Source: an uncultured Solirubrobacterales bacterium
GTDB taxonomy: Bacteria; Actinomycetota; Thermoleophilia; Solirubrobacterales; 70-9
DNA length: 64,000 bases
Assembly: GCA_963745305.1 (NCBI GenBank)
Contig: CAVUWL010000001.1
Location: 32,278 to 96,277, forward strand
Direction: 5' to 3'
Position numbers and translations under genes: made by a program. Below the pieces are notes generated by a model. That model worked only from the letters and a program-made list of their open reading frames with translations, made no database searches and was not told the DNA's origin. This document shows, one piece after another, positions 22,601 through 53,640 of the stretch. Positions within the stretch are counted from its first letter, which is position 1. Each line of letters begins with the position of its first letter.

Positions 22601-24115
22601 CAACTACGCTGAAACCAAGTGCCCGGCGGCGCAGAAGAGTTCCTCCGCTTCCCCGCCGTCTCCACCGACGGCTCCCACATCCTCATCTCCACCGCCACCG
22701 CCGCGACCCCGCTCTATCGGCCGTGTACAGGAGACGGACTGCCATGCACCTCGCTTCACCGACACCCCCATCCACCTCTACATGCGCGTCGACGACGGCC
22801 GCGTCACCTACGAGATCGCCGAAAACCCGACCACCCACGAACCCGCCGCCGTCCACTACGTCGGCATGACCCCCGACGGCTCCAAGGTCTTCTTCACCTC
22901 CGAAGAACACCTCACCTCCGAAGACCCCGACACGTCGGCTCCTCCCTCTACATGTGGAGCGCCGAAAAGGCCGAAGCAGGAGAACACCCCCTCACCCTCA
23001 TCTCCAAGGGCCAAAGCGAAGCAACCCGGCGCACCCGGCAACACCGCCGCCTGCACTCCGGCTCGCCAGACCGATACAGCCGGAGATCCAGCCAGAGAAG
23101 TCCCCTGGACCACCAGCTGCGGCGTCGTCCCCTACTCCGGCTGCCCTACTCCCAGCAACGGCCGGCCTCGGCGGCAACGGCATCTCCGACACCGCCATCG
23201 CCGCCAAACGGCGACATCTACTTCTTCTCCCCCGAGCAGCTCGACGGCACCGCGGCGTCCCGGCCAGCAGAACCTCTACGACTACCGCGAAGGCCGGCCC
23301 CACTACGTCGCCACCTTCGCCCCCGGCAGCTACTGCGCCACGCTCGCCAGGATGCTCGACACGCAGGCGAACGTCTGCGCCGAACGGCCCGATCGTCCGC
23401 ATCAGGTCACCCCCGACGACACCCACATGGCCTTCCTCACCGCCGACCGCATCACCTCCTACGACAACACCGCCGGCTGCGAGACCTCGACTCCCGAGAT
23501 GTACTCCTACACCCCCGCCACCGGCGCCATCGTCTGCGATTCCTGCAACCCCGACGGCCAGCCCCCCACCGCCGACGTCTCGCCTCCCAGGACGGCCTCT
23601 TCATGACCGACGACGGCCGCACCTTCTTCTCCACCGCCGAATCCCTCGTCCCCGCACGACACCAACGAAGGCGAGCGACGTCTATGAGTTCGTCGACGGC
23701 CGCCCCCAGCTCATCACCCCCGGCACCGGCACCGCCACCGTCAGCCGGCCGAAGCCTCGTCGCCGTCGACGAGGTGCCCGGCCTCGTCGGCGTCTCCGCC
23801 AACGGCACCGACGTCTACTTCTCCACCTACGACACCCTCATCTCCGAAGACCACAACGGCAACTTCCTCAAGTTCTACGACGCCCGCACCAACGGCGGCT
23901 TCCCCCAGCCCCCGCCCGCCCAGCCCTGCGCCGCCGCCGAAGAGTGCCACGGCCCCGGCACCGAAGCCCCCGCCCTCCCCACCCAGGGCACCGCCGCCAC
24001 CCTCACCGGCGGCAACGCCACCCCCGGCTCCCACAAGCACCACAAGAAACACCACAAGCGCAAGAGCAAGCGCCACAACCACCGAGCCGCACGCCAACCG
24101 GAGGGCCGGAAGTGA
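19680..24115 (+). pseudogene. giant secreted beta-propeller protein 1 (unit 1), heavily frameshifted
   Basis: Signal peptide MTSRPARSLLATLALATGLFLTIAGSASA. NHL-like blades (GHIFIADSSAGKVYDF, GDLYVFDASH, GELYVLDQG, GDLYVTTHNANSVEVY). FN3-like modules (CAFEYGTTQAFG...TTYFYRLSLTN; YFFEYGTSANYG; TTYHYRIVAENKFG). ACPNSAVRQQTGSAYLPDCRAYELVSP. PD40-like blades (STDGSHILIST, TPDGSKVFFTSEEHL, SANGTDVYFSTYD). Tail AAEECHGPG...GGNATPGSHKHHKKHHKRKSKRHNHRAARQPEGRK. The coding path jumps between ORFs 19844.., 19998.., 22162.., 22593.., 22619.., 22954..; the first shift is in the C7 run 19819..19825. Confidence 0.8.
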
Positions 24116-24399: not shown

Positions 24400-27329
24400 T
24401 CGCCACCCGCCGGCACTCACTCGCGCGGCCAGTCGTCCGCCGCTCTGCGTCCTGCGCCGTGCTGGGCACGCTCCTCCTCGCGTCGCCAGCAATGGCCAGC
24501 ACCTCCGATCCACTCCTTCTCCGCCCTACCCTCCACCACCCAGGCCGGCGGCCACCCCGACATCGACTTCGAGTTCGCCCTCTCCAGCTCACCAGTCGCA
24601 GTCCCCGACCCCTGCGCCTGCGACGACGCCACGAACGTCACCGTCCACCTCCCCGCCGGCTTCATCGGCAACCCCCACGCCACCCCCCAATGCGCCATCG
24701 CCGACTTCGCCGCCGACCACTGTCCCGTCGACTCCCAGCTCGGCATCGCCGAAGTCGGGATCGCTTCCGATGTCGCGGCAGGGCCCGGAATCTTCGCTCG
24801 CTCTTCGTCGCCCCCGTCTACAACCTCATCCCCCCTCCCGACCAGCCCGCCCTCCTCGGCTTCAAGAGCGGCCTCGTCGACACCCCCACCTTCGAGGTCA
24901 TCAGCGCCCGCACCAGACGCCGACTACGGCCTCGACGTCGACGGTCACCGACATCGACCACTTCTTCCCCCTCGTCCGCTTCGCCCAGCGTCACCTGGGG
25001 CGTTCCCGCCGCCCCGATCCACGACTACCTCCGCTTCGGCCTCGGCGAGCAGTCGATAGCACTCGGTTCCATTGGCGGCAGACAACCCGAATCGCTGCTC
25101 TGCGACGCCAACGGCAACCGAGCACCGACGATCCCGCCACGGCTACCAGCTCTGTGCGAATCCTCGGCCCCGCCGCCCTCGCCGGAGGCAGCGAAGGAAC
25201 TGGGGCGGCCCCGGCTTCCCGGTCTCCTCCAACAGCCCCGAAGACCCCCTTCCTCCAGAACCCCACCACCTGCGGCCTCGCCTCCCTCTCCACCTCCCTC
25301 GACGTCCTCTCCTACGACGGCGGCGAAACCCACGCCGACTCCACCTGGCCGCCCACCACCGACTGCGCCCAGCTCACCTTCAACCCCTCCCAGGCGATCG
25401 ACCCGACCACCGACCGCCGCCGACAGTCCCTCCGGCGCCGAATTCCGCCTCACCGTCCCCCAGTTCGAGAGCCCCGAAGTCCCCTCGCCCTCTGAGCTCA
25501 GCGCCGCCGACGTCACCCTCCCCGAGGCTTCTCCCTCGCCCCCAACGTCACCAACGGCAAGACCACCTGCTCTGAAGCCCAGTCGCGCTTCGGCACCACC
25601 GAAGAAGCCCAGTGCCCCGAAGACTCCAAGATCGGCACGATCTCCGTCGAAACCCCCGTCCTCCCCGGCGTCCTCCCCGGCGCCGTCTACCTCGGCGAAC
25701 CCAAGCCCGGCAACCGCTTCCGCATGATCCTCGCCTTCAACGGCTTCGGCGTCCACGTCAAGCTGCCCGGCACCGTCACCCCCGACCCGGTGACCGGCCA
25801 GATCCACATCGACTTCCAGAACCTCCCCCAGGCCCCCTTCGCCTACTTCAACCTCCACTTCTTCGGCTCCGAGCGCGGCCCCCTCGACACCCCCACCCAG
25901 TGCGGCACCTACGAAGTCTCCAACGAATGGACCCCCTGGGACTCCGCCCTCCCCGACCAGACCTCCCGCCAGTTCTTCAACGTCGACCGAAGGCCCGAAC
26001 GGCACCCCCTGCCCGAACGGCCCCCGCCCCTTCCACCCCGCCTTCCAGGCCGCCTCCGCCTCCAACACCGCCGCCGCCCACACCGCCTTCTCCCTCGACC
26101 TCACCCGCGAAGACGGCGAACAGAACCTCAGCTCCCTGAAGCGTCACCACCCCGCCCGGCTTCGCCGCCACCCTCAAGGGCGTCTCCTACTGCCCCGAGG
26201 CCGCGATCGCCGCCGCCGCCCTCGAAACCCACACCGGCCTCGCCGAGCAGGCCAGCCCCAGCTGCCCCGCCTCCAGCCTACGTCGGCGAACTCACCGCCG
26301 GCGCCGGCCCCGGCACCCACCCCCTCTACCTCCCCGGCAAGGTCTACCTCGCCGGCCCCTACCAGGGCGCCCCGCTCAGCTTCGTCTTCATCACCCCCGC
26401 CGTCTCCGGCGGCTATGACCTCGGCAACGTCGTCGTCCGCGAAGGCCTCGACGTCAACCCCGAAACCGCCCAGGTCACCGCCGTCGGCGCCCCGCTGCCC
26501 CAGATCTTCCAGGGCATCCCCCTCCGCCTCCGCCAGATCTTCGTCAACCTCAACCGCCCGAACTTCGCCCTCAACCCGACCAACTGCGACCCCCTCGAAG
26601 TCAAGGCCGAAGTCTTCGGCACCGAAGGCGCCGTCTCCACCTCCTCCGAGCACTTCCAGGTCGCCAACTGCGCCTCCCTCTCCTTCGCCCCCAAGCTCAC
26701 CACTCGAGCTCTCCGGCTCCACCAAGCGCACCGGCAACCCGGCCCTGCAGGCGACCGTCACCTACCCCAGGGCGGCCCCAACGCCAACATCGCCCGCACC
26801 TCGGTCACCCTGCCCCCCACCGAGCTCCTCGACAACGCCCACATCAACGACCCCTGCACCCGGGTCCAGTTCGCCGCCAATCGCACTGCCCGCCGGCTCG
26901 CTCCTCGGCTATCGCCAAGGCCGAAACCCCGCTGCTCGAAAAGCCCCTCGAAGGCCCGGTCTACCTGCGCGCCACCGGTCGGCAACAAAGCTCCCCGACC
27001 TCGTCGCCGCCCTCAACGGCCAGATCGACATCAACCTCGACGGCCGCGTCGACATCCGTCCACGGCACGGCTCCGCACCACCTTCGACACCGTCCCCGAC
27101 GCCCCCGTCTCCAAGCTTCACCCTCAACCTCGACGGCGGCAACAAGGGCCTCCTCGAAAACACGACCAACCTCTGCTCGGCCACCCGTGCACGTCAACGT
27201 CCAGATGACTGGCCAAAACGGCAAGACGGCCGACCAGAACCCGATCCTCCAAACCCCCTGCGGCAAGAAGCACCACAAGCGCGCCAAGCTCGATCGAGCT
27301 TGGCGCGCCACCGGGGAGGGGGTCGCTGA
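24400..27329 (+). pseudogene. QAGGHPD-motif secreted protein, type A (unit 1), heavily frameshifted
   Basis: LPSTTQAGGHPDIDFEF (CAG..GAC at 24541..24561). FIGNPHATPQCAIADFAADHCPVDSQLGIAEV. Later blocks are spread over ORFs 24316.., 24356.., 24459.., 25724.., 26415.. (VYLGEPKPGNRFRMILAFNGFGVHVKLPGTVTPDPVTGQIHIDFQNLPQAPFAYFNLHFFGSERGPLDTP; GIPLRLRQIFVNLNRPNFALNPTNC). Tail TPCGKKHHKRAKLDRAW. The homologous stop TGA 27327..27329 is out of frame after a G-run at 27313..27322. Confidence 0.75.
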
Positions 27330-27440
27330 TGGGCGCCAAGCTAAAGTTCGCCACTGCCCGTGCCAAGCTCCGGCGCAGCCGGGAGTGGGGGAGGGGTGTG
27401 TCTTCAGTCCCATCCACCGCAGCGGCCCAGTCGCCGATAG

Positions 27441-27545
27441 TAAGTCCAGAGATCGCCTCGCCCCGTACTAGCGCGAAGCGCGGAGCAGGACGCCAAGGGT
27501 TTCCTGAGCGGTGGCGCCATTCCCCAGTGGCAACGGACGTGCCCC
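27441..27545. repeat. dispersed repeat inside the 5' extension of the giant ORF
   Basis: TAGTAAGTCCAGAGATCGCCTCGCCCCGTACTAGCGCGAAGCGCGGAGCAGG... aligns by eye over about 100 nt with 35716..35820 (…CGCCCGTACTAGCGCGAAGCGCGGGTCAGG…). Confidence 0.7.
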
Positions 27546-27628
27546 GAGCCCAAGCGAGGGAGCGTCACCAATTGGTTCTTCGTGACCGAGCGAAGATCAC
27601 GCTCTGGGCGCGGAACAGGCGCCGGGCT

Positions 27629-30600
27629 ATGTCGGCCGCCAGCGTTGTGGCTGTCGTAGCGGGGACCCTCCTCCTCGCCACGCCAGCGCTTGCGCTGACC
27701 GTGACCACATCCCTCCCCACCCGCTCCGGAACCGCCGCCACCCTCAACGGCGTTGTCGATCCCCAGGGCGTCGAACTCAAATCGGGGGCCGCGGGCTGCC
27801 GCATCGAATGGGGCAAAACCGAAGCCTACGGCGAAGTAGCCCCTTGTAACTTTCTCACCGAAGTGAACGGAGCGGACTTCACTCCCAAAGGCATTGTCCC
27901 CACCGGCCTGGAATCCGGCGACGCTGTCGCTGAAATCACCGGCCTCGAACTGGGCCATACCTACCACTACCGCCTCGCGGCCGCCAACGCCACTGAAGCC
28001 AAGACGGGCGCCGACCAGTCCTTCATTGCTGGCTTTGGGCACGCCTTTTCGACTTCCTTCTCCGGTTCCGGCCCCACCACCCTCACCAACCCCACCGCCG
28101 TCGCCGTCGACGAATCCAGCGGCGACGTCTACGTCACCAACTCCCCTGTGAATGAGCTCCAGACCCTCACCGTCGGCGCCACCGCCACCGGCGACCTCAC
28201 CAAAGCCTCCACCGAAGTGACCGGCCTCCACCTATCGGCAGGTGAACTCGCCGAAGGCGCCAGCATCGAAGGCGAAGGCATCCCCCTCCACACCACGGTC
28301 CTCGCCGTCAACGAAACCGAACACAAGCTCACTCTCTCCAAGCCAGCCACCACCACCGCCACCACCGTCCCCCTCGCGGTTACGCCCAACGGCGGCACCT
28401 TCACCCTCACCTTCAAGGGCCAGACCACCAACCCTATCCACTTTCCCGCCTCGAGCGTCGTCGTGCAAAACGAACTTGAGGCACTCTCCACCCTCGGCCC
28501 GAAAAGCGTCAGCATCACCGAACCAGGCCAAAACTCGCGCGGCCCCTATGCGGTCGAATTTGTAGGCAAGCTTGCCGGTTCCTCACAGCCCTCGATCGCC
28601 GTCGACCCCTCCGCCCTCACCGCCGGCCCCCACACCGCCCAGGTTGCCGTCGCCCGCCCCGGCAGCTCCACCGCCGACGTCGAGAAGTTCTCCCCCACCG
28701 GCGAATTCCTCCTCATGATCGGCCGCGAAGTGAACCGCAAGGCGGTCGAAAGCCACGGCACCGAAGCCGAACAGGACGTCTGCGCCGCCGAACCTGGAGA
28801 AGCCGAACCTGGCGAAGACTGCCAGCCCGGCGCCCCCACCACCGCTCCCGGTGGTTTCACCGACCCCGCTCTTCTCGCCGTCGACAACTCCGCTCTCGAC
28901 CACTCCACCGGCGACCTCTACGTCGGCGATCGCCTCACCGGCGCTGGTAGCGGCGACATCCAGAAATTCGGCCCCGAAGGCCACCTCATCACTACCTGGG
29001 GCGACTCCGGCCTCCTCGACGGCTCCACCGACCCCGAAGGCGGCTTCGCAACCCCTGGCACAGATGAAGGCCTCAGCGGCCTCGCCGTCGACCCCTCTGG
29101 TCGCCTCTTTGCCACCGCCGAAAAACGCTATTCCGAGTTCGACCCCTCCGGCGCCTTCCTCGCCGGCACCCCCTTCCCCACCGGAATTGCGAGCCTCGCC
29201 GTCGACTCTTCCGGCCATCTCTATCTCAGCGAGACCAGGGAAGGGGGGGCACTCGGCAAGTGGTCCGCACAGGGCACCCGCATCGGCACTCTCGTCAACA
29301 ATTTCGCCGGCACCCCCACCAGCCTTGCCATCGACCCCGTCACTCGCGACCTCTTCGCCCTCTACGGCGACCGCGTCAAGCGCTTCGCCGGCTCCTGCGA
29401 CAACTTCCAGGCCCCCTGCACTCCCCTCGAAACCTTCGGTGAAGGCCAGCTCTCCGGCCCCGGGAACCTCGCCCTCGACGCCTCCTCCGGCGCCGTCTAC
29501 GTCGCCGACACCGGCAACCACCGCGTCGCCGCCTTCACCGCCGCCCCCTACCTCCCCCGCGCCGCCGCCGCCGCCGCCCCCAAGGCCTCCACCGCCGAGA
29601 CACTCACCGGCAACGCCGACCCCGCCGGCGCCCCTCCCATCGAAGCCTGCGCCTTCCAGTACGCTCCCGTCTCTGCCTTCAACGAAGTCCAGAACCTTAC
29701 CCTCCACGGCGCCACCGGCGGCACCTTCTCCCTCCTCACTTACTCCTCCGAAGACCGTAGATTCGAACAAGAGCACGAAGACACCACACTAGCACTCCCC
29801 TACAATGCTCCCGCCCAGCATGTCGCCGCTGCGAACGAATCCACCGCGAATATTGGCAAGGGCAATCTTTCCGTCACCGGCCCTCCCGGCGGTCCCTTCC
29901 GTATCGAATTCGTCGGTCGCTTCGCCCACCATCGCAACGCTCTGCTGGTCGTCAATTCCTCCTCCAACCTCACCCCACCCACAGCCACCACCGAAGTCCT
30001 CCGCCAGACCGAAGGCGACGCCGCCTGGGGCACCGCCCCCACTTCCGCATGCGAACCCCTCCCTTCACCTCAATTCTCCACCGCCACCCCCGTTACCGCC
30101 CAGGCGACCGGCCTTCAGCCCGGCACCGCCTACTTCTTCCGCCTCCTCGCCGAAGACAAAAACGGCCCCGCCCAGAGCTACGAAGAAAACGAATTCACCA
30201 CCCTCCCCCTCGCCCCCACCGTCGGTGCCACCTCGGCCTCTGCCGTCCACGCCGACACCGCCCAGATCGCCACCGAGATCGACCCCGGCGGCGGCGAAGC
30301 CGCCTACCACACGCACTACTATCTCGAATACGTCACCCAAAAACACTTCGAAGAAGAAGAATTCACCGGCGCCGCCCGCAGCCCCGAACTCGACGCCGGC
30401 GGCGCCCATACCCCCCAGAGCCTCACCGTCTCCCTCAGCGCTCTGGACCAGAACACTACCTACCACTACCGCGCCATCGCCTCCAACGAATGCGAACTCG
30501 AAAAGCAATGCCTGGTGCCGGGAGCCGCCCACACCTTCACCACCCTGCCCTCCCCTGAACAGATCCACGACACCTGCCCCAACGCCCACGTCCGCCAGCA

Positions 30601-33600
30601 GACCGGCTCAGCTCTCCTCCTCGACTGCCGCGCCTACGAGCTCGTCTCCGCCGCCAACGCGGGTGGCTATGACGTCGAGTCCACCCTGATCGAAGGCCAG
30701 TCCCCCTTCGCCGGCTACCCGCAGGCCTCCGGCCGCGTCCTCTACGGCGTCCACGGCGGCGGCATCCCCGGCACCGATCACCCCACCGACCGCGGCGTCG
30801 ACCCCTACCTCGCCACCCGCACCGAAAACGGCTGGAGTACCGAATACGTCGGCATCCCCTCCAACGCCACCCCCTCGACCGCCCCCTTTGCCTCCACCTT
30901 GCTCGAAGCCGATCAGGGCCTCGGCGCCTTCTCCTTCGGCGGCCCCGAAATCTGCCAGCCCTGCTTCGCCGACGGCTCCACCGGCATCCCCCTCCGCAAC
31001 TCAGACGGCAACCTCGTCCAGGGCATGGCCGGCTCTGAAGACCCCGGCCCCTCCGCCGAACCGGCCGGTTTCATCGCCAAGCACTTCTCCGCCGACGGCA
31101 CCCACTTCCTCTTCGGCTCGACCGCCAAATTCGAGACTGACGGCAACGAAGGCCAGATCTCGATCTATGACCGTAACCTCGCTACCGGCGTTACCCACGT
31201 CGTCTCCAAGGCCCCCGGCGGCGGCAGCCTGCCCTGTGAAATCAACTGCCAAAGCAACGGCATCGGCGTCCTCGACGTCTCCGCCGACGGCTCCCACATC
31301 CTCCTCGGCCAGCTCGTCTCCGTGAAAGAAGGGATCAAGCGCTGGCGCCTCTACATGAACGTCGGCGACTCCGGCGAAACCACCGCGCTCACCCCCGGCG
31401 CCACCGAAGGCGTCCTCTTCGACGGCATGACCGCAGACGGCTCCAAGGTCTTCTTCTCCTCCCCACAGCACCTCACCAATGAAGACACCTCCCACACCGG
31501 CCCCGCCATCTTCCTCTGGCAAGAAGGCCACCTGCTCGCCCTCATCACCAAGGGCAACTCCGGCTCCTGCGATCCGCTCGCCAATTCAGCCCACGAACAC
31601 TGGAATGTGAGCGGATCTGAAAAAACCTGCGGCGCGCTCGCGATCGGCGGCGGCGGCGGCGTCTCCTCCGCCACCGGCGCCGTCTACTTCCTCTCCCCCG
31701 AGCTCCTCGCCGGCACCGAAGAACCCAAAGATGGCGTCCTGAACGCTCCCAACCTCTACCGCGCCGGCCCCGAAGACGGCTACGCCACCCACTTCGTCGC
31801 CACCCTCGAATCGGCGCTTAACGGCCCCCAGCCGCCCCGCTCCGGCCGCTCCTTCCTCCGCGAATTCGGCTTCTTCACCAAGGCCACCGGCCTCGCCGTC
31901 GATCGCGCCAGCGGCGACGTCTACGTCCTCGACCTCGGCGGCGGTGAAAACGAACTGCCGGCCGGCGTCGCCAAGTTCGACTCCTCCGGCAACCTAATCC
32001 AAGGCTGGGGCTCCCACGGCCACCTCTCCGGCTCCTCCGCCACCGGCACCGGCGAACTCACTGCCGGCTCCAACACGATTACCAAAGTCACCACCGCCTC
32101 CGGCGCCTTCAGCCCCGGCCAGGAGATATCCGCCCCCGGCATCCCCCCCGAAACCACCATCGCCGCCTGCTCTCCCTCTTGCGAAGCCCCGACCTCCCTC
32201 GAAATTTCCCAGGAAGCGACCGCCTCCGGGCCGGCGCAGCTCAGCGCCAAGCAGCCCTTCTCGGAGCTGCCCTCCTCCGGCTCGCCCACCCAGCTCGCCG
32301 TCGATCAGTCCAGCGGCGACCTCTACGTCCCCGACCTCCTCCACTTCGCCGTCGACGTCTTCGACTCCTCTGGCAACTACCTCACCCAGATCGGCGGCAT
32401 CTTCGGCCCCACCGCGCTCGCCGTCGACCCCTCCAACGGCGATCTCTACGTCGCCACCATCTTCGGCGGCATTGACGTCTTCGAACCCTCCGCAGGCTCC
32501 CCCCCGACCTTCACCCCGAACCCCGAATTGTCCATCCCCGCTGCCCACTCGACCACCGGCCTCGCCGTCGCTCCCAACGGCACCGTCTACGTCGCCAACG
32601 GCTCCGAAACCGCGGTTTATAAAAAAGGCCCCACTGCCTATGAAAAAGTCTCCACCCTCGACCCCGAACCCTCCCAGGGCGTCGCCATCGACCCCACCAC
32701 CGGCTACGTCTCCGTCGACGAGGGAAATCGCGTCGTCCAGTTCGACTCCTCCGGTCACCAGCTCGCCACCTTCAGCTCTGAAGCCTTCTCCGGATCGGTC
32801 GGCCTCGCCCTCGACCCCGGCGGCGACCTCTACGCCACCACCGCGGGAGGCGCCAAGCTCGCCGCCTTCGGTCGCTTCGGCCTGCCCCCCGGCCCCGCGA
32901 TCGACAACCCCGCCGTCATCGACTCCGTCACCGAACCCGAAGCCCGCCACACCGCCGACTTCCAACTCACCCCATCCGGCGAATTCGCCGCCTTCCCCTC
33001 CTCCCTCGCCCTCGCTGGTGCTGAAGAAGAACCCGCTGGCCACGATGTCCTCTACCGCTACGATGCCGCCGCCAAAAAGCTCACCTGCGTCTCCTGCACC
33101 CCCACCGGCGCTCCCTCCACCGGCGACTCCAACCTCGCCCCCGACGGCCTCAGCCTCACCGAAGACGGCCGCGTCTTCTTCGACTCCACCGACCGCCTCG
33201 CCGCCGCCGATACCGACAATCGCCGCGACGCCTATGAGTGGGAGGCGGCCGGGACCGGCAACTGCACCGCGCAAAGCCCCTCCTTCAGCGTCCGCACCGG
33301 CGCCTGCCTAGCCCTCATCTCCGCCGGCACTTCCACCTTCGACTCCGGCCTCCTCGGCGTCTCCGCCGACGGCACCGACGCCTACTTCTTCACCCGCGAC
33401 TCCCTCGTCCCCCAGGACAAAAACGGCCCCACCATGAAGATCTACGACGCCCGCGAAGGCGGCGGCTTCCCCTACCTCCCCCCGCGCGAAGACTGCAAGG
33501 CCTCCGACGAGTGCCACGGCGCCGCCAGCCCGCTTCCTCCACCGATCGAAGCCGGCTCAGAAGCCGGCTCCCCCCACAACGCCGAAGAAGAACCCAAACC

Positions 33601-33736
33601 GTGCAAGAAGAGCTTCGTCAAAAAGCACGGCAAGTGTGTCCAGCGCCACCCCCACAAGCACCGCCACCACGTGCGCCATGAACGCAGCAAGAAGCACCGA
33701 GCCAAGCACCACAGGAAAGGATCGGTGCACTCTTGA
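27629..33736 (+). CDS. giant secreted beta-propeller protein 2 (unit 1), intact; stop codon supplied by the group II intron
   Basis: Uninterrupted ORF 27329..33736. Signal peptide MSAASVVAVVAGTLLLATPALA starts at ATG 27629. FN3-like modules (WGKTEAYG...GHTYHYRLAAANA; TAYFFRLLAEDKNG; TTYHYRAIASNE). NHL blades (GDVYVTNS, GDLYVGDR, GAVYVADTGNHRVAAF, GDVYVLDLGG, GDLYVPDL, GDLYVATI). TCPNAHVRQQTGSALLLDCRAYELVS. PD40-like blades (SADGTHFLFGS, SADGSHILLG, TADGSKVFFSS, SADGTDAYFFT). CKASDECHG. PCKKSFVKKHGKCVQRHPHKHRHH. Exon 1 ends at 33670. Confidence 0.85.
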   Translation: MSAASVVAVVAGTLLLATPALALTVTTSLPTRSGTAATLNGVVDPQGVELKSGAAGCRIEWGKTEAYGEVAPCNFLTEVNGADFTPKGIVPTGLESGDAVAEITGLELGHTYHYRLAAANATEAKTGADQSFIAGFGHAFSTSFSGSGPTTLTNPTAVAVDESSGDVYVTNSPVNELQTLTVGATATGDLTKASTEVTGLHLSAGELAEGASIEGEGIPLHTTVLAVNETEHKLTLSKPATTTATTVPLAVTPNGGTFTLTFKGQTTNPIHFPASSVVVQNELEALSTLGPKSVSITEPGQNSRGPYAVEFVGKLAGSSQPSIAVDPSALTAGPHTAQVAVARPGSSTADVEKFSPTGEFLLMIGREVNRKAVESHGTEAEQDVCAAEPGEAEPGEDCQPGAPTTAPGGFTDPALLAVDNSALDHSTGDLYVGDRLTGAGSGDIQKFGPEGHLITTWGDSGLLDGSTDPEGGFATPGTDEGLSGLAVDPSGRLFATAEKRYSEFDPSGAFLAGTPFPTGIASLAVDSSGHLYLSETREGGALGKWSAQGTRIGTLVNNFAGTPTSLAIDPVTRDLFALYGDRVKRFAGSCDNFQAPCTPLETFGEGQLSGPGNLALDASSGAVYVADTGNHRVAAFTAAPYLPRAAAAAAPKASTAETLTGNADPAGAPPIEACAFQYAPVSAFNEVQNLTLHGATGGTFSLLTYSSEDRRFEQEHEDTTLALPYNAPAQHVAAANESTANIGKGNLSVTGPPGGPFRIEFVGRFAHHRNALLVVNSSSNLTPPTATTEVLRQTEGDAAWGTAPTSACEPLPSPQFSTATPVTAQATGLQPGTAYFFRLLAEDKNGPAQSYEENEFTTLPLAPTVGATSASAVHADTAQIATEIDPGGGEAAYHTHYYLEYVTQKHFEEEEFTGAARSPELDAGGAHTPQSLTVSLSALDQNTTYHYRAIASNECELEKQCLVPGAAHTFTTLPSPEQIHDTCPNAHVRQQTGSALLLDCRAYELVSAANAGGYDVESTLIEGQSPFAGYPQASGRVLYGVHGGGIPGTDHPTDRGVDPYLATRTENGWSTEYVGIPSNATPSTAPFASTLLEADQGLGAFSFGGPEICQPCFADGSTGIPLRNSDGNLVQGMAGSEDPGPSAEPAGFIAKHFSADGTHFLFGSTAKFETDGNEGQISIYDRNLATGVTHVVSKAPGGGSLPCEINCQSNGIGVLDVSADGSHILLGQLVSVKEGIKRWRLYMNVGDSGETTALTPGATEGVLFDGMTADGSKVFFSSPQHLTNEDTSHTGPAIFLWQEGHLLALITKGNSGSCDPLANSAHEHWNVSGSEKTCGALAIGGGGGVSSATGAVYFLSPELLAGTEEPKDGVLNAPNLYRAGPEDGYATHFVATLESALNGPQPPRSGRSFLREFGFFTKATGLAVDRASGDVYVLDLGGGENELPAGVAKFDSSGNLIQGWGSHGHLSGSSATGTGELTAGSNTITKVTTASGAFSPGQEISAPGIPPETTIAACSPSCEAPTSLEISQEATASGPAQLSAKQPFSELPSSGSPTQLAVDQSSGDLYVPDLLHFAVDVFDSSGNYLTQIGGIFGPTALAVDPSNGDLYVATIFGGIDVFEPSAGSPPTFTPNPELSIPAAHSTTGLAVAPNGTVYVANGSETAVYKKGPTAYEKVSTLDPEPSQGVAIDPTTGYVSVDEGNRVVQFDSSGHQLATFSSEAFSGSVGLALDPGGDLYATTAGGAKLAAFGRFGLPPGPAIDNPAVIDSVTEPEARHTADFQLTPSGEFAAFPSSLALAGAEEEPAGHDVLYRYDAAAKKLTCVSCTPTGAPSTGDSNLAPDGLSLTEDGRVFFDSTDRLAAADTDNRRDAYEWEAAGTGNCTAQSPSFSVRTGACLALISAGTSTFDSGLLGVSADGTDAYFFTRDSLVPQDKNGPTMKIYDAREGGGFPYLPPREDCKASDECHGAASPLPPPIEAGSEAGSPHNAEEEPKPCKKSFVKKHGKCVQRHPHKHRHHVRHERSKKHRAKHHRKGSVHS

Positions 33737-35626
33737 TGCGCCGCTGTACAGAAGATGGAGGCAGGCCCTCCGTGGTCGCCGTGCAGGCGGAGATCACAAA
33801 CCACCCCAAGGTGCGGCGGTCAAGAGCCGCTCGTGCTGAGCGTTGCGGGAAAAGGCGTGCCGACGAGCACGTCAGGTATGACCCGATGAAGACGAGCGAG
33901 AGCGAACCACTGCTGAAGTGTCGAAATGTGTTAGACGACATCGAAACCAGGCCATGTGGTGGCGCCTGGGATGAGCCTGGGATGGCACCTGTTTACTGCC
34001 CAGGCGGTGTCCGGCATGTAGGTGGCGTGAGCGCGGGTCAGGCTCCTGTACGGAACATGGGAACCTGTCGTCTCGCGGGAGAGCGGCTCATGGTCGAAGA
34101 TCTCCGGCCGCTCATCCCAGGGAAGGCCCCAAGCGGCAGAAACCGCAAGGGACCACATCCTGATGTGAGGCACAGGGGCGGATCGCCCGGTAGTAGTAAT
34201 GAAGGCTCCGTAATGGGGCTGGAGCGAAGCGGGCGGGCCATCCAGGCAAGGACAGCGGTCAACCACGAGGTGAGTGGGAGGACCCGGTGACCGAGCCAAA
34301 GTCAAAGGTCAAGAAGTCGTTTTGCATCGACAAGAGGGTGGTCTGGAAGGCGTGGAAGCAAGTCAAGGCCAACCAGGGCGCTCCAGGTGTTGACGAGGAG
34401 TCGGTTGCGGAGTTCGAGAGGAGCCTGGAAGGGAACCTCTACGTGCTGTGGAACCGGATGTCCTCGGGTGCCTACATGCCACCGCCTGTGAAGGCGGTGC
34501 AGATACCGAAGAAGAGTGGGCGAGGGTCAAGAACCCTCGGTGTGCCCACAGTCGCAGACAGGGTCGCGCAGACGGTCGCCAAGCTGCACTTGGAGCCCGA
34601 GGTGGAGCCAGTGTTCCACCCCGACTCCTACGGCTACCGACCGAACCGCTCGGCCCTTGACGCGGTGGGGACATGCCGGGAGCGGTGTTGGAGATATGAC
34701 TGGGTTCTAGATTTGGACCTGAAGTCATTTTTCGACTCCGTCGATCACAAGCTCATCCTGAAAGCGGTAGCCGCCCACACCGATGAGCGGTGGGTGCTCC
34801 TCTACGTCGAGCGCTGGCTGAAGGCCCCGCTCGACAATGGGGACGGCAACCTGGAAGCGCGTGATCGCGGCACCCCTCAAGGGTCCGCGATCTCCCCGGT
34901 GCTCGCCAACATCTATCTCCACTATGCGTTCGATACATGGATGGCCAGGGAGTTCCCGGCCGTTCCCTTCGAGCGCTATGCAGACGATGTTGTCGTACAC
35001 ACCAAAAGTGAGCGCCAGGCGCGGTTTGTGCTCGGCGAGATCAAGAAGCGGATGGCGGACTGTCACCTGGAGCTAAACCAGGAGAAGAGCCGCATTGTGT
35101 ACTGCAAGGACGCAAACCGCACCGGCTCTCACGAGCACGAGCGGTTCGACTTCCTCGGGTACACGTTTCGACACCGGCAAGCCCGCAACGGGCGGGGCGA
35201 GCTGTTTCGTAGCTTCTCCCCAGCAGTCAGTGACGAAGCCGCGAAAGCGATACGCCGGACGATCCGCAAATGGAGGATTCACCTATGGAGCGGGACACCA
35301 CTCACGGACCTCGCACGGGAGCAGGGCGCGATCGTGCGAGGCTGGATCAACTACTACGGGCATTTCCACCCGTCCGAGCTGGCCAGGTCTCTCCTGCGCA
35401 TCGACGAGTACCTGATGCGCTGGGCGATGCGGAAGTTCAAGCGACTGAAAGGCCGCCGCGAGCGGGCCTGGGAGTTCCTGGCGGACGTGCATGCACGTCA
35501 ACCGGAGCTCTTTGCTCACTGGCGGTTGGTACGACCCTACGACCGGATGGTGGGAGCCGTATGACGGGAGACTGTCACGTGCGGTTCTGCGAGAGCCGGG
35601 GGGCGAAATCCTCCCTGCCACTCACC
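33671..35626 (+). mobile_element. group II intron, copy 1 (1956 nt)
   Basis: Begins GTGCGCC (GUGYG consensus). Canonical 34-nt domain V GAGCCGTATGACGGGAGACTGTCACGTGCGGTTC at 35554..35587. Domain-VI-like hairpin with bulged A (CCTCCCTGCCACTCACC) ends at 35626. RT/maturase ORF sits in the domain IV position. Similarity to copy 2 (51628..53583, same length) starts and stops exactly at these borders. Borders are +/-1 nt because of a shared C. Confidence 0.85.
34287..35564 (+). CDS. group II intron reverse transcriptase/maturase (no endonuclease domain)
   Basis: RT blocks GAPGVDEESV, RTLGVPTVADRVAQ, YGYRPNRSALDA, LDLDLKSFFDSVDH, GTPQGSAISPVLANIYL, FERYADDVVVH. Maturase X domain GWINYYGH. The ORF ends inside domain V. 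Confidence 0.9.
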   Translation: MTEPKSKVKKSFCIDKRVVWKAWKQVKANQGAPGVDEESVAEFERSLEGNLYVLWNRMSSGAYMPPPVKAVQIPKKSGRGSRTLGVPTVADRVAQTVAKLHLEPEVEPVFHPDSYGYRPNRSALDAVGTCRERCWRYDWVLDLDLKSFFDSVDHKLILKAVAAHTDERWVLLYVERWLKAPLDNGDGNLEARDRGTPQGSAISPVLANIYLHYAFDTWMAREFPAVPFERYADDVVVHTKSERQARFVLGEIKKRMADCHLELNQEKSRIVYCKDANRTGSHEHERFDFLGYTFRHRQARNGRGELFRSFSPAVSDEAAKAIRRTIRKWRIHLWSGTPLTDLAREQGAIVRGWINYYGHFHPSELARSLLRIDEYLMRWAMRKFKRLKGRRERAWEFLADVHARQPELFAHWRLVRPYDRMVGAV

Positions 35627-35662
35627 AAACGAGCCAACCACAAGCGCGGAGGTAAGAAATGA
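35627..35662 (+). other. predicted 3' exon of giant gene 2 (KRANHKRGGKK-stop)
   Basis: Joining 33670 to 35627 keeps the frame and gives ...RHPHKHRHH-KRANHKRGGKK*. The uninterrupted paralog tail at 61720..61765 reads RHHRRANPHRGGHK* across the same junction (GGCACCAC-AGGCGAGCCAACC vs CGCCACCAC|AAACGAGCCAACC). Confidence 0.65.
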
Positions 35663-44861: not shown

Positions 44862-47297
44862 ATGACCAGGGATCGGAAATCGATCGGTGGAGAGCAGCTG
44901 AGAGACGCCACGCCAGGCGCCAGCTCCGATCGCCCAACCACCTGCATCGTTGAGAGTCAAAGACCGGATGCCGCGGGTCGGCCTCTCCACCGGGGTATCC
45001 ATACCCCGTTCCCTCCCGCTGTCGGCGTGGTCCTCTCTTTCATCTCAGCTCTCGCGGCGCTGATGGCCCTCGCCGCCGCCCCCGCGTTCGCGTCCGGAAC
45101 CGAAACCCTCAAGGTCTCCATCTCAGGGAGCGGTACCGGCACGGTCAGCGGAGCCGGCATCGAATGCGGCAATGGCGCCGAAACCTGCGAAGCACAGTTC
45201 GCCGCCAAATCCGTCATCACACTCACCGCTACCCCAACCGAACGCTCAACCTTCGCTCGTTGGTCCGGCTGCACAGAAGTGCCAAGCCCGACCAAGTGCA
45301 GGGTCAGAATTGCCGCAGGGGTTCCGACTGAAATCGGCGCAGAATTCTCCGCCATCCCCCAGGAGACGCTCGCAGTTGTCAACCCCGGCGCCGGGCTGGG
45401 CGGCGGCCGCGTTGTCGGCACCACTCCCGGACGCGAATTCAGCGAAATCGAATGCGGTAACGAACGCGAAGGCTGCCAGGCCGAATACAACCAGGCAGCC
45501 GTCATCACCCTCACCGCGACCCCAACCGAACGCTCAACCTTCAGCGGCTGGGAAGCCGGCGACTGCAAATCCGAAAGCGGCCCCGGCAACGACGAATGCA
45601 AAGTCGAAATGACCAAAGCCGAGACCGTCAAAGCCGAATTCGTCCCGATCCCCCAGAAGACCCTCTCCGTCGCCGCCCAAGGCGCCGGCCAGGGCACCCT
45701 CACCGCTTCTCCTGGAGGCGAATTCGCCTCGATCGAATGTGGCAACGGCGCCACCGCCTGCGAAGCGCAGTACAACCAGGGCACCACTCTCGTCCTCACC
45801 GCTCGCTCTTCAACCCACAGCAAGTTCGTTGCCTGGACCGGCTGCGAAGCGCAACCCAGCGAAACCGAATGCGAAGTGACGCTGAGCGCCACCAGGGCCA
45901 TCACCGCCGAATTCCTCCCTATCCCCCAGCAGCCTCTCGAACTCTCCGTCACCGGGCCCGGTGAAGTGACCAGCTCCCCGCCGGGCATCGCCTGCACCTC
46001 GACCGGCGAAACCTGCAGCGAACACTTCGACTCCGAAGGCTCCGAAGGCAGGGTCACGCTCTTCGCTTCGCCCCCTGCCGACCACCACGTCGTCTGGAGC
46101 GGCTGCGAAATCTCGAGCGGAACCGAATGCACGGTGACGATGAGCTCCGCCCGATCGGTAACCGCCCAATTTCTCCCCACTCTGCAAACGGTGCTCGTCA
46201 CCCGCATCGGCGCCGGCGAAATCACCAGCTCCCCATCCGGCATAGCCTGCGACGAAGACCTCTGCAGCGCAGACTTTCAGGAAGGAGCCACCGTCGTCCT
46301 CACTGCCCACCCCGCCGCCCACAACCGTCTCGGTGCCTGGGGAGTCGGTGAGTGCAAAGAAGAACCGAGTCCCACCGAATGCGAAATCGAAATCGGCGCC
46401 TCCTTCTCGATCGTCGCGGCCGAATTCGCTCCCATTTCGCACACCTTTGCCGTCGCGGTCAGCGGTGGAGGCTCGGTGAGCGCTAGCGCCGGCCCGATCG
46501 CCGGCTGCGCTCACGGTGGCGGCGTCTGCGCGGGAGAATACGATGAGGGTTCAACGCTTGTTCTTACCGCGTCGCCCTTTTCCAACAGCACCCTTCCCAC
46601 CTGGAGCGGCTGCACACCGAAGCCCAATCCCGCCGAATGTGAGGTCACGATCGGCTCTTCGGGCGAAACGATCCATGCCGATTTTCCGCCCAACTCCCAC
46701 ACCCTCACTGTAGAACCCTTCGGCTCCGGCTCGATTAGTGCCGATAGCGGCACGATCTCCGACTGCTCCGAAGCCGGCGGCACCTGCGCCGGCTCCTATA
46801 TCGAAGCAGCCACCCTCACTCTGATCGCAACTCCCGGCCCCCATCAGGCCGTCGCCTGGCACGGCTGCACCCACACCGAAGAGGACAGTTGTCAGGTTGA
46901 AATCGGCGCCTCTTCCTCCTCCGTCAAAGCCAGCTTCGCACAGATCACCCATGCTCTCACAGTCACGAGGGTCGGCTCGGGGCAGGGTTCGGTCACCTGC
47001 AACGGCGCCACCTGCGCCTCCAGCTACCCCGAAGGTACCACCCTGACCCTGACTGCCTCCCCGGCCGCCGGCTCGGCCTTCGCAGGCTGGAGTGGGGGAG
47101 GGTGCTCGGGAACCGGAGCCTGCCATCTCACCTTCGAAGCCGACACCACTGTCACCGCGACCTTCAACGCCAACACCGCGCCGCCTATCGAAGAAGAAAA
47201 GAAGCCGCCGCCGCTCAAATGTCGCAACGGCTTCGTCAAGAAGAATGGCCGCTGCGTCCGCAAGTCCAAGCCTCGTCATCACAAGAAGAAGCACTAG
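44862..47297 (+). CDS. secreted InlB-B-repeat protein (about eight repeats) with Cys-hairpin basic tail, intact (unit 2)
   Basis: Signal-like VVLSFISALAALMALAAAPAFA (GTG 45027 is an alternative start). Repeats of G.G.V......I.CG.....C.A.Y..G..V.LTA.P...S.F.GW.G..C......ECKV....A..V.A.F. Tail PPLKCRNGFVKKNGRCVRKSKPRHHKKKH. Confidence 0.8.
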   Translation: MTRDRKSIGGEQLRDATPGASSDRPTTCIVESQRPDAAGRPLHRGIHTPFPPAVGVVLSFISALAALMALAAAPAFASGTETLKVSISGSGTGTVSGAGIECGNGAETCEAQFAAKSVITLTATPTERSTFARWSGCTEVPSPTKCRVRIAAGVPTEIGAEFSAIPQETLAVVNPGAGLGGGRVVGTTPGREFSEIECGNEREGCQAEYNQAAVITLTATPTERSTFSGWEAGDCKSESGPGNDECKVEMTKAETVKAEFVPIPQKTLSVAAQGAGQGTLTASPGGEFASIECGNGATACEAQYNQGTTLVLTARSSTHSKFVAWTGCEAQPSETECEVTLSATRAITAEFLPIPQQPLELSVTGPGEVTSSPPGIACTSTGETCSEHFDSEGSEGRVTLFASPPADHHVVWSGCEISSGTECTVTMSSARSVTAQFLPTLQTVLVTRIGAGEITSSPSGIACDEDLCSADFQEGATVVLTAHPAAHNRLGAWGVGECKEEPSPTECEIEIGASFSIVAAEFAPISHTFAVAVSGGGSVSASAGPIAGCAHGGGVCAGEYDEGSTLVLTASPFSNSTLPTWSGCTPKPNPAECEVTIGSSGETIHADFPPNSHTLTVEPFGSGSISADSGTISDCSEAGGTCAGSYIEAATLTLIATPGPHQAVAWHGCTHTEEDSCQVEIGASSSSVKASFAQITHALTVTRVGSGQGSVTCNGATCASSYPEGTTLTLTASPAAGSAFAGWSGGGCSGTGACHLTFEADTTVTATFNANTAPPIEEEKKPPPLKCRNGFVKKNGRCVRKSKPRHHKKKH

Positions 47298-47394
47298 GAG
47301 CCAACCAGTGAGCCTTCGCCGATTCCGCTCTTCCCTCACCCCCAGGAATTGCCCTGCCCCATCCGGCCGCGCGGGGTTGGCGGACCAACTGCCT

Positions 47395-50300
47395 ATGTCC
47401 CGTTCCGGGCGTTTCCTCTGCGCCGCTGCGATCGCGGTGTCTGCGGCGTTCTGGTTGCTCCCCTCGGTTGCCCAGGCCGTTCCGGCACGTAACTTCGACA
47501 CCCAGCTCACCGGCTTGACGCCCCCGACCGCCCCGGTGCAGGGCCCCTTCAGGACTCCCTTCGGCGTCGCGATCGGAGCTGACGACAACCTCTGGGTTGT
47601 CGACGAAGGCCGTGGCGCGATCCCTGAGTTCGACCCCCTCGGTGGCTACCTCTCCCAGGTCCCCGACTCCGCCGGCCGCCGCCTGGCCGTCGATCGTTCC
47701 AGCGGTGATATCTACGCCGTTAGTGGAGCCAACGGTGCAAACGCGATCGGGGTATTCGAAAGCAACGGCACCTTTCTCCGCCACATCGCATTCGGTCGAG
47801 AAGAGTGTGGCGAAATCGCGGTGGCCGTCGACAACTCCGGCGGCGCCGGCGGTCCCGGCGAAGGCGAACAGGGCCGGCTCTACCTCACCTATAACTGCGG
47901 TATCCGCGGCGTCCAAGCCCTCGATCCCGATGGAAACCCCGTCGACTTCTCCGGCTCCGCCGGCTATATCTTCGGTAACGAAATCACCGGTACGCCCGCC
48001 GGCGAATTCGAAAGCGCCAACAACGCACTCGCTACCGATGCCCACGGCGACGTATACCTCTTCGGCCGCGCCGGGAGCGAAGAACCCGCCGGCTATGAGT
48101 TTGCACCCAGCGGCACTTTCATTCGGGCCTTCACGGGTGCCGAAGTTCCTGGTGGCCTTTCCCGCGACATCGAAGGTATCGCCGTCGATCCCACCAACGG
48201 GAATGTCCTTTTTGCAGCAGCAGATTACGCCGAAAGCGCCATCTATGAATTCAACGAAACCGGAAAATTCCTCCAAAAGATCAGCGGCACCTCCGAAGGC
48301 AATACCTTCGCTGGTCTCAGTGGCGGCATCGCCGTCAGCTCGACCGGCTACCTCTACGCAGCCGACGCCGCCGCAGGGGTCATCGACGTCTTCCTTCCAC
48401 CAGGCCTCGGCCCCTTGCCCGAAGCTAGGACCGAAGCCGCCACCGAAATCGAACGCAATTCTGCGACCCTCCATGCCAAAGCCAGTTTGGCCGGCGGCAG
48501 CCATATCACGAAATGCCAGTTCGAATACGCCATTGCCGCCGCCTACAGGCCCTCGGCGGAACCCGAACCCTATACCGATACCGCACCCTGCCTTAACAAT
48601 GCGGGCGAAACAGTCGGTACCGGCGCAGCGCCGATCGAAGGCGCCACCGAACTACACGCACCCATCCAAGGAATCCACGCTGGCGACACCTTCCACTTTC
48701 GCATCTCACTCACCAATGATGATGATGTCGCCCGCTACGGCTCCGACCGTACCTTCGAAACACCTCCCGCCGTCACCGCTGTCAAGACCCTTCCTCCGAC
48801 CGAGATCACCAACAAGTCCGCACTCCTGCACGGCTCCTTTACCGGCGAAGGTATCCCCACCACCTACCACTTCGAATACACAACGGAAGGCGATTTCGAA
48901 GACCACGGCTACGGAACCTCGATCAAGCTGCCCGTCCCCGATGCCGGCGCTCCGGAAGGGGCTGGTGAAGTTTTCGTCCCCCCGGTTGAAGCCGCCGGTG
49001 TCGTCCCCGACACCCCCTACGTCTACCGGCTTGTCGCCACCAACAAATATGGGACGACCATCGGCGAAAATCAGTCCTTTACCACCTTCCAGCCACCTAG
49101 CATCGAAGGATTCTTCACCTCCCACCTCAGCGCCACCTCCGCCGACCTTGAAGCCAAGATCAACCCCCAGGGCTTTGCCACTGAATGTCGCTTCGAATAC
49201 GGCCCCACGACTTCCTATGGAGCCATTGCGCCTTGCCCAGAAGCGCTAGGGAGGACACAGCGGCCTGCCGATCGTGGTCCCAATCTCCGGCCTCCAGTCG
49301 GGCGTCACCTACCACTTCCGCGTCATCGTCGAAAACAAATGGGGAGCCGTCACCTCCGAAGATCAGAGCTTCGAATTCTTCCCCCCGGCTTGCCCCAATC
49401 CGCCATCCGCAACCAGACCGGCTCCGCATACCTACCCGACTGCCGCGCCTATGAGCTCGTCTCCCCGCCGAACGCCAACGGCACTCTGCTCTACGCCGGT
49501 GGGCCAAACACGGGGAACGCCACAAACCCATCCCGCCTCTCCTTCACCGGGCTCTACGGCTCCATTCCTGGCGCCAAGACCATCAACTCCGCCGGTGACC
49601 TCTACGTCGCTACCCGCACCGACACCGGTTGGGAATCCAAATATATCGGCCTCCCCGGCAGTCAGGCCGGCTGCATGGGTGGGCCACCCAACTATCCGCT
49701 CTCCCACGTCGTCTCCCCGAACCCGCCGTATCTCACCAACTCGGTCCCTCGGATTCCTCCATGAAAGGTTCCTCATCTGGAACGACGGTACTCCCGGTAG
49801 CATGCTTCAACGGGACTTCGCCCTTCGCCGATACCAACTGGGAACTGGACTCGCCGTCCAATGCTCCCTACATGTACAGCGCCGAAGGCGGCCTGATCCA
49901 GCGCCTGCCGACCGACTTGCCGGGGGGAACGGGAGCGGTGGAAGCCAGCACTCAAGTGCCCCTATCCACACAGGAGACCGTGACGCCGCCCTGCACCAGC
50001 GAAGTCGCGGCCTCCGGTGATCTCAGCCACCTGGTCTTCTCTTCCAACACCACCTCCTTCTCCGAACCAGGACAGCCGCCTGGCCTTACCAAAGCCCCCG
50101 GCTCCGCTTATGACAACGACATTGCTTCCGGCACGGTCGAGTTGATCTCGCTGGGGCCCAATGGCGAAAACATTCCCCAGGACCCCGTCTTCGCCAATGC
50201 TCCTCCCCAACCCAACAACGGAAGCAGAATCGAAGTGCCCGGCGGCGCCGAAGAGTTCCTCCGCTTCCCGGCCATCTCCACCGACGGTTCCCACATCCTC

Positions 50301-53583: not shown

Positions 53584-53640
53584 AAGAGCAGGCGCCATCC
53601 ACGCCGAGCCGCTCATCACGATGGCAGGGCTGCGCGATGA
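53584..53640 (+). other. predicted 3' exon of giant gene 1 (KSRRHPRRAAHHDGRAAR-stop)
   Basis: Joining 51627 to 53584 gives ...TKRHKR-KSRRHPRRAAHHDGRAAR*. The uninterrupted unit-1 paralog reads KHHKR-KSKRHNHRAARQPEGRK* (CACAAGCGC-AAGAGCAAGCGCC at about 24052..24073 vs CACAAGCGC|AAGAGCAGGCGCC). Confidence 0.65.

Follow-up and report, generated by a model that had tools for sequence, protein, structure and literature searches.

The window analysed here, a stretch of 64,000 nucleotides (nt) from contig CAVUWL010000001.1 (positions 32,278 to 96,277) of an uncultured Solirubrobacterales bacterium (assembly GCA_963745305.1), carries two copies of one group II intron, both in the + strand. They are inserted in genes for proteins with basic C-terminal tails, 11 codons (copy 1; 33671-35626) and 18 codons (copy 2; 51628-53583) before the natural stop codons of the hosts. 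All coordinates are window positions, and the features of introns and host genes delimited below also lie on the + strand. When the host frame is followed into the intron it stays open for a short stretch and then stops, reading 21 codons that encode VRHERSKKHRAKHHRKGSVHS plus TGA (33734-33736) in copy 1 (33671-33736), and VRHERSKKHRAKQHRKGSVRP plus TGA in copy 2 (51628-51693). Our translations agree with the original prediction, made from this DNA alone, that the first 63 nt and the following stop codon encode peptides rich in lysine, arginine and histidine (K/R/H), and it was equally right in placing both introns after a complete host codon, i.e., in phase 0 of the long open reading frames (ORFs) 27329-33736 and 50161-51693. 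By comparing these introns with their relatives, we propose that a tolerant hairpin loop at the 5' end of the intron has probably been recruited to encode a substitute C-terminus that spares the host protein. It is from these sequence comparisons that we infer the function of the peptide as a surrogate tail.

The relatives come from two sources. A search with the intron protein in contigs of one genome per species provided 80 loci of at least 576 relatives, mostly from Solirubrobacterales metagenome-assembled genomes (MAGs), and a pattern scan anchored on the conserved 5' motif provided at least 120 further metagenome loci (L081-L200; L-numbers denote the loci of relatives). Among the 80 genome loci, all 24 copies of the clade with an enlarged hairpin loop are inserted in phase 0 of a long ORF, and all read VRH(E/A)(R/C), then a K/R/H-rich run closed by a stop codon, 14-27 amino acids (aa) in total (for example, VRHERKKTHKKKKK, VRHERNKRKKHHHRGKK, VRHARKEFGQSKKTKKKKKK and VRHECKKKPKTKHKSARKAARRKSRRS, each followed by a stop). 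Among the matches listed, seven metagenome contigs with the intron in a basic tail are likewise in phase 0, e.g., GKCVKK^VRHERKKNRRSKK and SGCPKV^VRHERKKKHTKRKKK, both ending in a stop (a caret marks the insertion point). The expectation that other copies would keep a basic frame in phase with their hosts was thus borne out, with L147/L150 and L201, weighed below, as partial exceptions.

The constant phase is not the legacy of one inherited event. The insertions occupy at least 11 positions relative to host motifs (CKxG^FVK, HGRC^V, GKCVKK^, GCPK[AVKT]^, AC^EKQARK and places inside H/K/R runs) and their intron-binding sites (IBS1) are unrelated, which argues for separate insertions. The same is suggested by the identity of the introns, about 90%, against about 50% for the flanking host protein in a rough estimate from translated C-termini. 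Among the relatives listed, K-rich loops are found only in copies residing in basic-tail genes. Of the family members that share this 5' end, the majority interrupt YADD codons in the reverse transcriptases of other introns, in phase 1, where they read GAPRARLEVAM and a stop, and in the sister copies L005, L006 and L008 the peptide is neither basic nor in phase 0. In a protein search, none of the best 120 host homologs ends in VRHER; P0028/L201 reads the intron in another frame by means of an upstream 1-nt shift.

The tail-coding segment also appears to evolve as a coding sequence. In two subclade alignments we compared the gap events of this segment with those of the remaining ~540 nt of domains I-III: all seven gaps in the tail-coding segment are multiples of 3 (3, 6, 9, 12 and 18 nt in one subclade, 6 and 9 nt in the other), whereas only 3 of the 16 gaps elsewhere are, most of these 16 being of 1 nt (Fisher's exact test, p ~5e-4). 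Eight of the nine copies of subclade A hold the TGA of a conserved YUGAUGCG in frame despite five segment lengths of 57-78 nt; the ninth, L004, stops earlier, after 54 nt.

The resemblance of the intron peptides to the tails that they displace, which had been described as a close mimicry, is for most copies one of composition. The displaced tails are real, and K/R/H residues make up 66% of the intron tails (past the first five residues) and 64% of the natural ones; natural tails open with C-VRKH or C-VRRH, and the intron opens with VRHER. A site-specific match was found only in L009 and L010, where the read-through sequence C^VRHARKEFG can be compared with natural C-VRTAHKRYG and C-ERQARKKYG; this is the top anchored score of all pairings, and it involves a non-basic host motif. 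In L002, with the intron directly behind a Cys codon, the read-through HGRC^VRHERHKGKKHKHR... stands beside the spliced HGRC^VKKHPKKHHKSKK...

This interpretation depends on where the intron begins. The original prediction had noticed that the similarity between both copies begins at 33671/51628 and that a second GTGC(A/G)C lies 54 nt further on, at 33725/51682; both observations are correct. Comparative sequence data place the 5' splice site at 33671/51628 and not at the second GTGC, the outcome named beforehand as speaking against a tail encoded by the intron. Every listed relative opens with GTGYGCCAYGARCGC (pattern GTG[CT]G-CCAYGARCGC) behind unrelated upstream sequences; this conserved 5' end extends to distant relatives from Streptomyces, Kribbella and Actinoplanes, and in the at least 120 metagenome relatives the motif again adjoins unrelated sequence. 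The 5' GUGYG of the metagenome set was fixed by the search pattern, while among the other relatives listed the conservation of GTG[CT]G is an observation. The GTGCG present at both 33671 and 51628 agrees with the group II 5' consensus GUGYG, and the first 15 nt of the intron, GUGCGCCAUGAACGC, which read V-R-H-E-R, are the family-wide conserved 5' end of the ribozyme.

The pairing between exon-binding site 1 (EBS1) and IBS1 points to the same position. A loop ~280-300 nt from the intron start shows complementarity to the final 6-9 nt of the 5' exon of the same copy. In copy 1, the EBS1 GTGGTGGCG (33956-33964), in the loop of the hairpin AAACCAGGC[..]CCUGGGAUGAG, is the perfect complement of the final 9 nt of the 5' exon, the IBS1 CGCCACCAC (33662-33670); in copy 2, the EBS1 GCGCUU (51913-51918) pairs with the IBS1 AAGCGC (51622-51627). 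In other copies the EBS1 loops are CTTCTT, TCGTTT, GGCTTTT, GTGCTTTG, etc., each fitting its own exon. Own-exon pairing was compared with cross pairing in 26 copies, and none of 20,000 permutations was as good (p<5e-5), with the pairing anchored at position -1; it extends over 6-9 base pairs in most copies and is weak or missed in L009, L010, L016, L018 and L019.

The opposite boundary was defined similarly. The 3' end ...ACUC(A/G)(C/A)C is common to more than 60 relatives with differing 3' exons; the window copies end in ...CUCACC and the relatives in AC, CC or CU, with an ambiguity of 1 nt because exon 1 and intron both end in C. In L015, two identical introns lie in direct tandem (3386-7289 of that locus), so that the 3' end of one directly abuts the second (...CTCACC^GTGCGCC...). 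An intron-less paralog in the window is colinear with the joined exons of copy 2 (exon 1 plus exon 2), whose junction reads CACAAGCGC^AAGAGCA, and the junction of copy 1, HRHH^KRANHKRGGKK, agrees with uninterrupted homologs that end in ...HHRRKKANHQRGGGK and ...HHKRSEHHRGGKK.

Within the intron, the tail-coding segment coincides with a predicted 5'-subterminal hairpin of domain I (33683-33740; minimum free energy -24.8 kcal/mol, z = -3.4) that consists of an outer stem CGCA/UGCG, a middle stem CAAGA/UCUUG, an inner stem GCACCGA (33694-33700)/UCGGUGC (33722-33728) and a terminal loop (33704-33718). In this predicted fold, the second GTGC (33725-33728) belongs to the inner stem, on its 3' side. 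An equivalent hairpin is predicted in each aligned copy of the K-rich clade and the sister group and in most distant relatives examined, which carry UCGAU-GUAGAAG-AUCGA at this position; stems were judged from per-sequence folds, as in a MAFFT/RNAalifold alignment no stems but the outer ones stayed in register. These outer pairs show conservation together with some two-sided changes (the outer stem of L018 is compensated to UGCA/UGCA), and the inner stem varies in sequence (ACCCAC/GUGGGU in L020, AACAC/GUGUU in L011). The second GTGC is missing from most clade members, such as L020 with GUGGGU, and in copy 1 it reads GUGCA, deviating from GUGYG. While the hairpin itself is family-wide, its upper part and terminal loop are enlarged and purine-rich in the Solirubrobacterales clade, where, read in frame with the host, they are made up of Lys/Arg/His codons and the stop codon falls within the 3' strand. 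Since the hairpin was retained in the copies examined, the coding change appears to respect the RNA structure.

The mechanism that we propose starts from the coupling of bacterial transcription and translation. Ribosomes tracking RNA polymerase would enter the intron well before the transcript reaches domains V and VI, which lie 1.9 kb downstream, and read-through would therefore be unavoidable. In this lineage a hairpin loop that tolerates structural change has probably become a coding module that gives the read-through protein a tail similar to the natural one of ~20 aa in charge and, broadly, in length, and the stop after 14-27 codons would free the ribosome before the catalytic core of domain I is unfolded. 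Spliced mRNA would then yield the natural tail and unspliced mRNA the substitute; the expected C-terminal peptides would be ...HRHHKRANHKRGGKK after splicing and ...HRHHVRHERSKK.../...KGSVHS after read-through. Insertion would cost the host little, and only phase-0 insertions would persist. The ancestral frame-1 peptide, already basic, may have pre-adapted the family to this niche.

A more ambitious form of the idea, which we put forward with somewhat more reserve and regard as possible, is that this intron lineage evolved mimicry of host proteins, the dispensable 5' hairpin loop being an evolvable coding cassette re-tuned for each family of target sites, so that co-transcriptional read-through gives a working protein and the intron can live in bacterial ORFs without efficient splicing. 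The loops cited for such a re-tuning are K-rich in K-rich tails and H/R/K-rich where the tails are so too, and one reads ARKEFG at a site with ARKKYG in the host.

Several observations weigh against a recruited substitute C-terminus. The K-rich copy L147/L150 lacks a clear host ORF, and L201 has no early stop and shows a 1-nt frameshift upstream; many of the source genomes are long-read MAGs carrying indel errors. Outside L009/L010, an intron tail resembles the one that it displaces no more than it resembles the others, and in L011, L027 and L035 it replaces a conserved C-terminal region of ~50 aa and is not a full substitute. The constant phase could come in part from similarity-based homing among codon-periodic Lys/His/Arg targets, and the GCPK^ group is probably one site type. 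Slippage in AAG repeats yields multiples of 3 without selection, and some of the basic character is inherited, since frame 1 of the ancestral hairpin is Arg-rich. One alternative takes the peptide as a neutral by-product without selected role: the basic sequence would come from the ribozyme constraint on the 5' end (V-R-H-E-R), from an Arg-rich frame that was inherited and from slippage of AAG triplets in a loop that tolerates it, and similarity of the targets would provide phase 0. The ancestral peptide VRHERDWRLRCRRSR was indeed already basic and stop-terminated, many loops are simple AAG repeats, several IBS1 are built of in-frame CAC/AAG/CGC codons, and the similarity to own versus other tails is mostly not significant. 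Nevertheless, we judge this alternative rather unlikely, because insertions with unrelated IBS1 (GGCCGCTGC, AAACGA, GAAAGCC, ATCGCCTGC, GCAGGGC) are all in phase 0, complex non-repetitive tails (the 27 aa of L018, the 57-78 nt of subclade A) remain open and basic, and the frame-preserving indels include non-repeat blocks of 9-18 nt, while the rest of the ribozyme shows mostly 1-nt indels. In addition, L009/L010 gained A, F and G matching the host motif, and among the relatives listed K-rich loops are confined to basic-tail genes.

It could also be argued that the purine-rich loop acts as RNA, either as a site for the intron protein, the ribosome or other factor, or by stalling or positioning ribosomes in a way that aids folding (cf. 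subdomain Ia of the groEL introns), its coding look being secondary. The conservation of the hairpin would fit this idea, and its 5'-subterminal position in domain I seems comparable to that of domain Ia in the IIB1 clade. However, the loop is not conserved as RNA but kept only as K/R/H codons in one frame, with indels in multiples of 3, and a test of whether the hairpin holds a mimic of IBS1 or another 5' site gave no excess of own-IBS1 matches (own match 3.5 nt, cross match 4.1 nt, p = 0.93), so that this idea was rejected, which makes a purely RNA-level role improbable. The third alternative, raised in the original prediction, takes the 54 nt as a former 5' exon captured or co-converted into the mobile unit, with the true splice site at 33725/51682. 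It draws on the resemblance of the second GTGC(A/G)C to GUGYG and on the tail-like peptide encoded by the 54 nt. We can hardly give it any credit: hundreds of relatives with unrelated exons share the first 15 nt as their conserved 5' end, EBS1 covaries with the sequence upstream of 33671 and not with that upstream of 33725, the empty-site paralog lacks the whole unit starting at 33671/51628, and the second GTGC, which in copy 1 departs from the consensus, is base-paired in a conserved stem and absent from most of the clade. A capture of a natural tail at the nucleotide level was not established either: the best ungapped match, to paralog A, spans 16 nt and includes one mismatch (p = 0.07 by codon shuffling). 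The recruitment of the hairpin loop as a substitute C-terminus is the explanation that we favour.

The rest of the anatomy is that of group II introns. Copy 1 (33671-35626; 1956 nt, from 5' GUGCG to CCACUCACC 3') was delimited by Rfam matches, more than 25 copies with different exons and uninterrupted homologs, and copy 2 (51628-53583; 1956 nt) by Rfam, its alignment with copy 1 and the empty-site alignment. The domain I-IV core matches RF01999 (group-II-D1D4-2) at 33757-33877 and 51714-51834 with 105 and 107 bits (gathering score 36), and domains V and VI match RF00029 (gathering score 40) at 35552-35626 (56.9 bits) and, in the second copy, at 53509-53583 (56.1 bits); in copy 1, the extent of domains V and VI with the 3' end (35552-35626) is also supported by the sequence and by the 3' ends of more than 60 relatives. 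Domain V can be read as GAGCCGUAU...GCGGUUC followed by the stem of domain VI, in which a bulged A lies 7 nt from the 3' end (GCC-A-CUCACC), as read by inspection. Domain IV contains an intact ORF that specifies the intron-encoded protein (IEP), a reverse transcriptase/maturase with the YADD motif: 425 aa in copy 1 (34287-35564; Pfam RVT_1 and GIIM; TIGR04416 with 408 bits, cutoff 300) and 430 aa in copy 2 (52229-53521; ORF list and alignment with copy 1). No HNH or endonuclease match was found in the 425-aa IEP with the Pfam and TIGR profiles, and the protein stops shortly past the maturase domain. Each element is thus a complete group II intron, probably an active one, whose reverse transcriptase/maturase lacks the endonuclease, and each occupies the tail-coding region of a large secreted NHL-repeat protein; a class C IEP is unlikely because the insertion sites are not behind terminators. 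The stop codons of the reverse transcriptases (35562-35564 and 53519-53521) sit within domain V (GAGCCGUAUGACGG), and the ORF thus overlaps the catalytic hairpin.

In a pairwise alignment the two copies are mostly 85-95% identical, and the similarity runs from 33671/51628, with one C shared upstream, to 35626-28/53583-85. Between these copies, which are elsewhere about 90-95% identical, the EBS1 loop (33955-33966 versus 51912-51923) differs at most positions, and two more segments of domain I, 33885-33930 and 34093-34105, are hypervariable with respect to their copy-2 counterparts. Copies L006, L009, L010, L023 and L035 measure 2.7-3.3 kb instead of the usual ~1.95 kb, with the extra 0.8-1.4 kb located in domains I-IV.

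The window has four paralogous host genes. Exon 1 of host gene 1 (27329-33670) encodes a large secreted protein with NHL repeats that ends in ...CKKSFVKKHGKCVQRHPHKHRHH, as deduced from the ORF list, a Pfam NHL match and homologs, which share the conserved architecture ASDECHG...CKKGFVKKHGKC plus a basic tail. Its 3' exon (35627-35662) encodes the natural tail KRANHKRGGKK, comparable to the homolog tails KKANHQRGGGK and HHRGGKK. Uninterrupted homologs end in ...CKKGFVK[KR]HGKC-V[RK][KR]H... followed by a tail of ~20 aa on average that often finishes in RGGKK or RHG. Exon 1 of host gene 2 finishes with an open stretch (50161-51627) whose product ends in ...LRHRTKRHKR, with the upstream part of the gene spread over other frames, and the 3' exon (53584-53640) encodes the natural tail KSRRHPRRAAHHDGRAAR. 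The raw ORFs run from these genes into the introns (27329-33736, 2135 aa with NHL repeats, and 50161-51693), and gene callers will consequently give such host proteins intron-derived tails, as in 27329-33736.

The tail of the intron-less paralog (23981-24115) reads ...HKKHHKR^KSKRHNHRAARQPEGRK and aligns with the exons of copy 2 at 24031-24115. Its unoccupied cognate site, CACAAGCGC^AAGAGCAAG (24053-24070, + strand; junction between 24061 and 24062), is identical to that occupied by copy 2 both in the IBS1 (CACAAGCGC) and in the first bases of the 3' exon (AAGAGCA), which means that a cognate target in the same genome stayed empty. Host gene 2 spans three overlapping frames (47092-49764, 49629-50411 and 50161-51693), and in paralog B (61578-61765) the tail HHRRANPHRGGHK and the ACKKGYVKKHGSCVRRARKG lie in different frames; these breaks are either long-read indel errors or pseudogenes, and arguments from reading frames at other places in the window should be taken with caution. 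The TGA that naturally ends host gene 1 (35660-62) overlaps an ATG (35659-61) that opens a downstream ORF of 1162 aa. If this ATG is real, the stop at 33736 in unspliced RNA would uncouple the translation of the downstream gene.

Most metagenomic members of the family (among L081-L200, e.g., L089, L094, L106 and L117) lie directly behind YADD codons (..RYADD^, ..RFADD^) in phase 1, and the wider family appears to home into other introns. One Actinomycetota MAG (CAWDEZ01) contains 15 near-identical related introns (L044-L058) in copies of one repeated gene, always after ..GACAACTACG(C/G)CACCCAC^ and before AA(A/G)CA...; this is a retrohoming burst into a multicopy element that looks like an IS630-type transposase. 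The locus L016, from the same MAG as the tandem L015, has the same EBS1 and a mismatched IBS1 (CCCGAAGAAG versus CCCGAAGGCA), and both loci suggest recent mobility. The sister introns L005 (~3371), L006 (~2598) and L008 (~3398), devoid of the K-rich loop, are found a few nt past an apparent start codon (AAGGAGAACATGGTGA^, GATAAGGTGA^) or right behind ..CGATGA^ before a signal-peptide gene, sites reminiscent of the niche that the IIB1 clade has at start and stop codons.

Bacterial group II introns are considered to keep away from protein-coding genes, since the coupling of transcription with translation would not allow time for splicing. To our knowledge, the only workaround described at gene ends is that of the groEL introns, which insert within the stop codon, and no description of an intron-encoded substitute for a host tail was found in the literature searched. 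If our proposal is true, an intron with its own substitute C-terminus would be a second and more elaborate solution for gene ends, in which ribozyme RNA and host-frame coding constraints coexist within the same 60 nt. It would also provide a testable system for the tolerance of introns inside genes, a step in most scenarios of intron spread.

Among the introns whose behaviour at a locus can set a protein C-terminus, B.a.I2 of Bacillus anthracis and C.te.I1 of Clostridium tetani yield C-terminal isoforms by alternative 3' splicing (PMC4424553). Those isoforms arise from alternative 3' sites and downstream exons, whereas the window introns would act through the lack of splicing, with a C-terminus encoded in domain I. 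The IEP classes C, D, E and F are defined by the missing endonuclease domain (PMC4424553), which the window IEP also lacks. Like the RmInt1-type introns, the window elements combine a ribozyme with a reverse transcriptase/maturase devoid of endonuclease and a site-specific retrohoming guided by EBS-IBS pairing. In contrast, RmInt1 and most bacterial introns reside in mobile DNA or outside genes, and lack a host-frame coding segment. In yeast mitochondria, the introns aI1 and aI2 are translated in frame with the upstream exon, the in-frame ORF being their own reverse transcriptase, which is later cleaved off. In the window introns the in-frame part is instead a short tail resembling that of the host, and domain IV has its own ORF for the reverse transcriptase.

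The closest parallel is offered by the groEL introns. Avi.groEL and EcKTE56.groEL are specialised IIB1 introns located at start/stop codons (Ferat 2003 and Michel 2007, cited after PMC12584367). Introns of the groEL type enter the UAA codon between its second and third positions, where the first G of the intron restores a stop as UAG, and the start/stop-codon IIB1 clade carries a 5'-subterminal subdomain Ia of 300-700 nt whose deletion cuts mobility about eightfold (PMC12584367). Both systems are mobile lineages specialised for the very end of coding genes, in both the host ORF is terminated in unspliced RNA, both have an extra 5'-subterminal element in domain I, and tandem insertions are known there as in L015 here. 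The window introns are nonetheless not members of that clade, as they are inserted 11 and 18 codons before the stop, have an endonuclease-less reverse transcriptase and bear a hairpin of only ~58 nt. The groEL introns give one nucleotide of a stop codon, encode a CL1 reverse transcriptase with endonuclease and occupy proteobacterial housekeeping genes, whereas the window lineage gives 14-27 codons plus the stop in place of a real tail, lacks the endonuclease, resides in Solirubrobacterales surface proteins and has a hairpin of ~58-60 nt in place of the 300-700-nt subdomain. The substitute-tail arrangement is best read as an extension of the groEL strategy of inserting into the stop codon.

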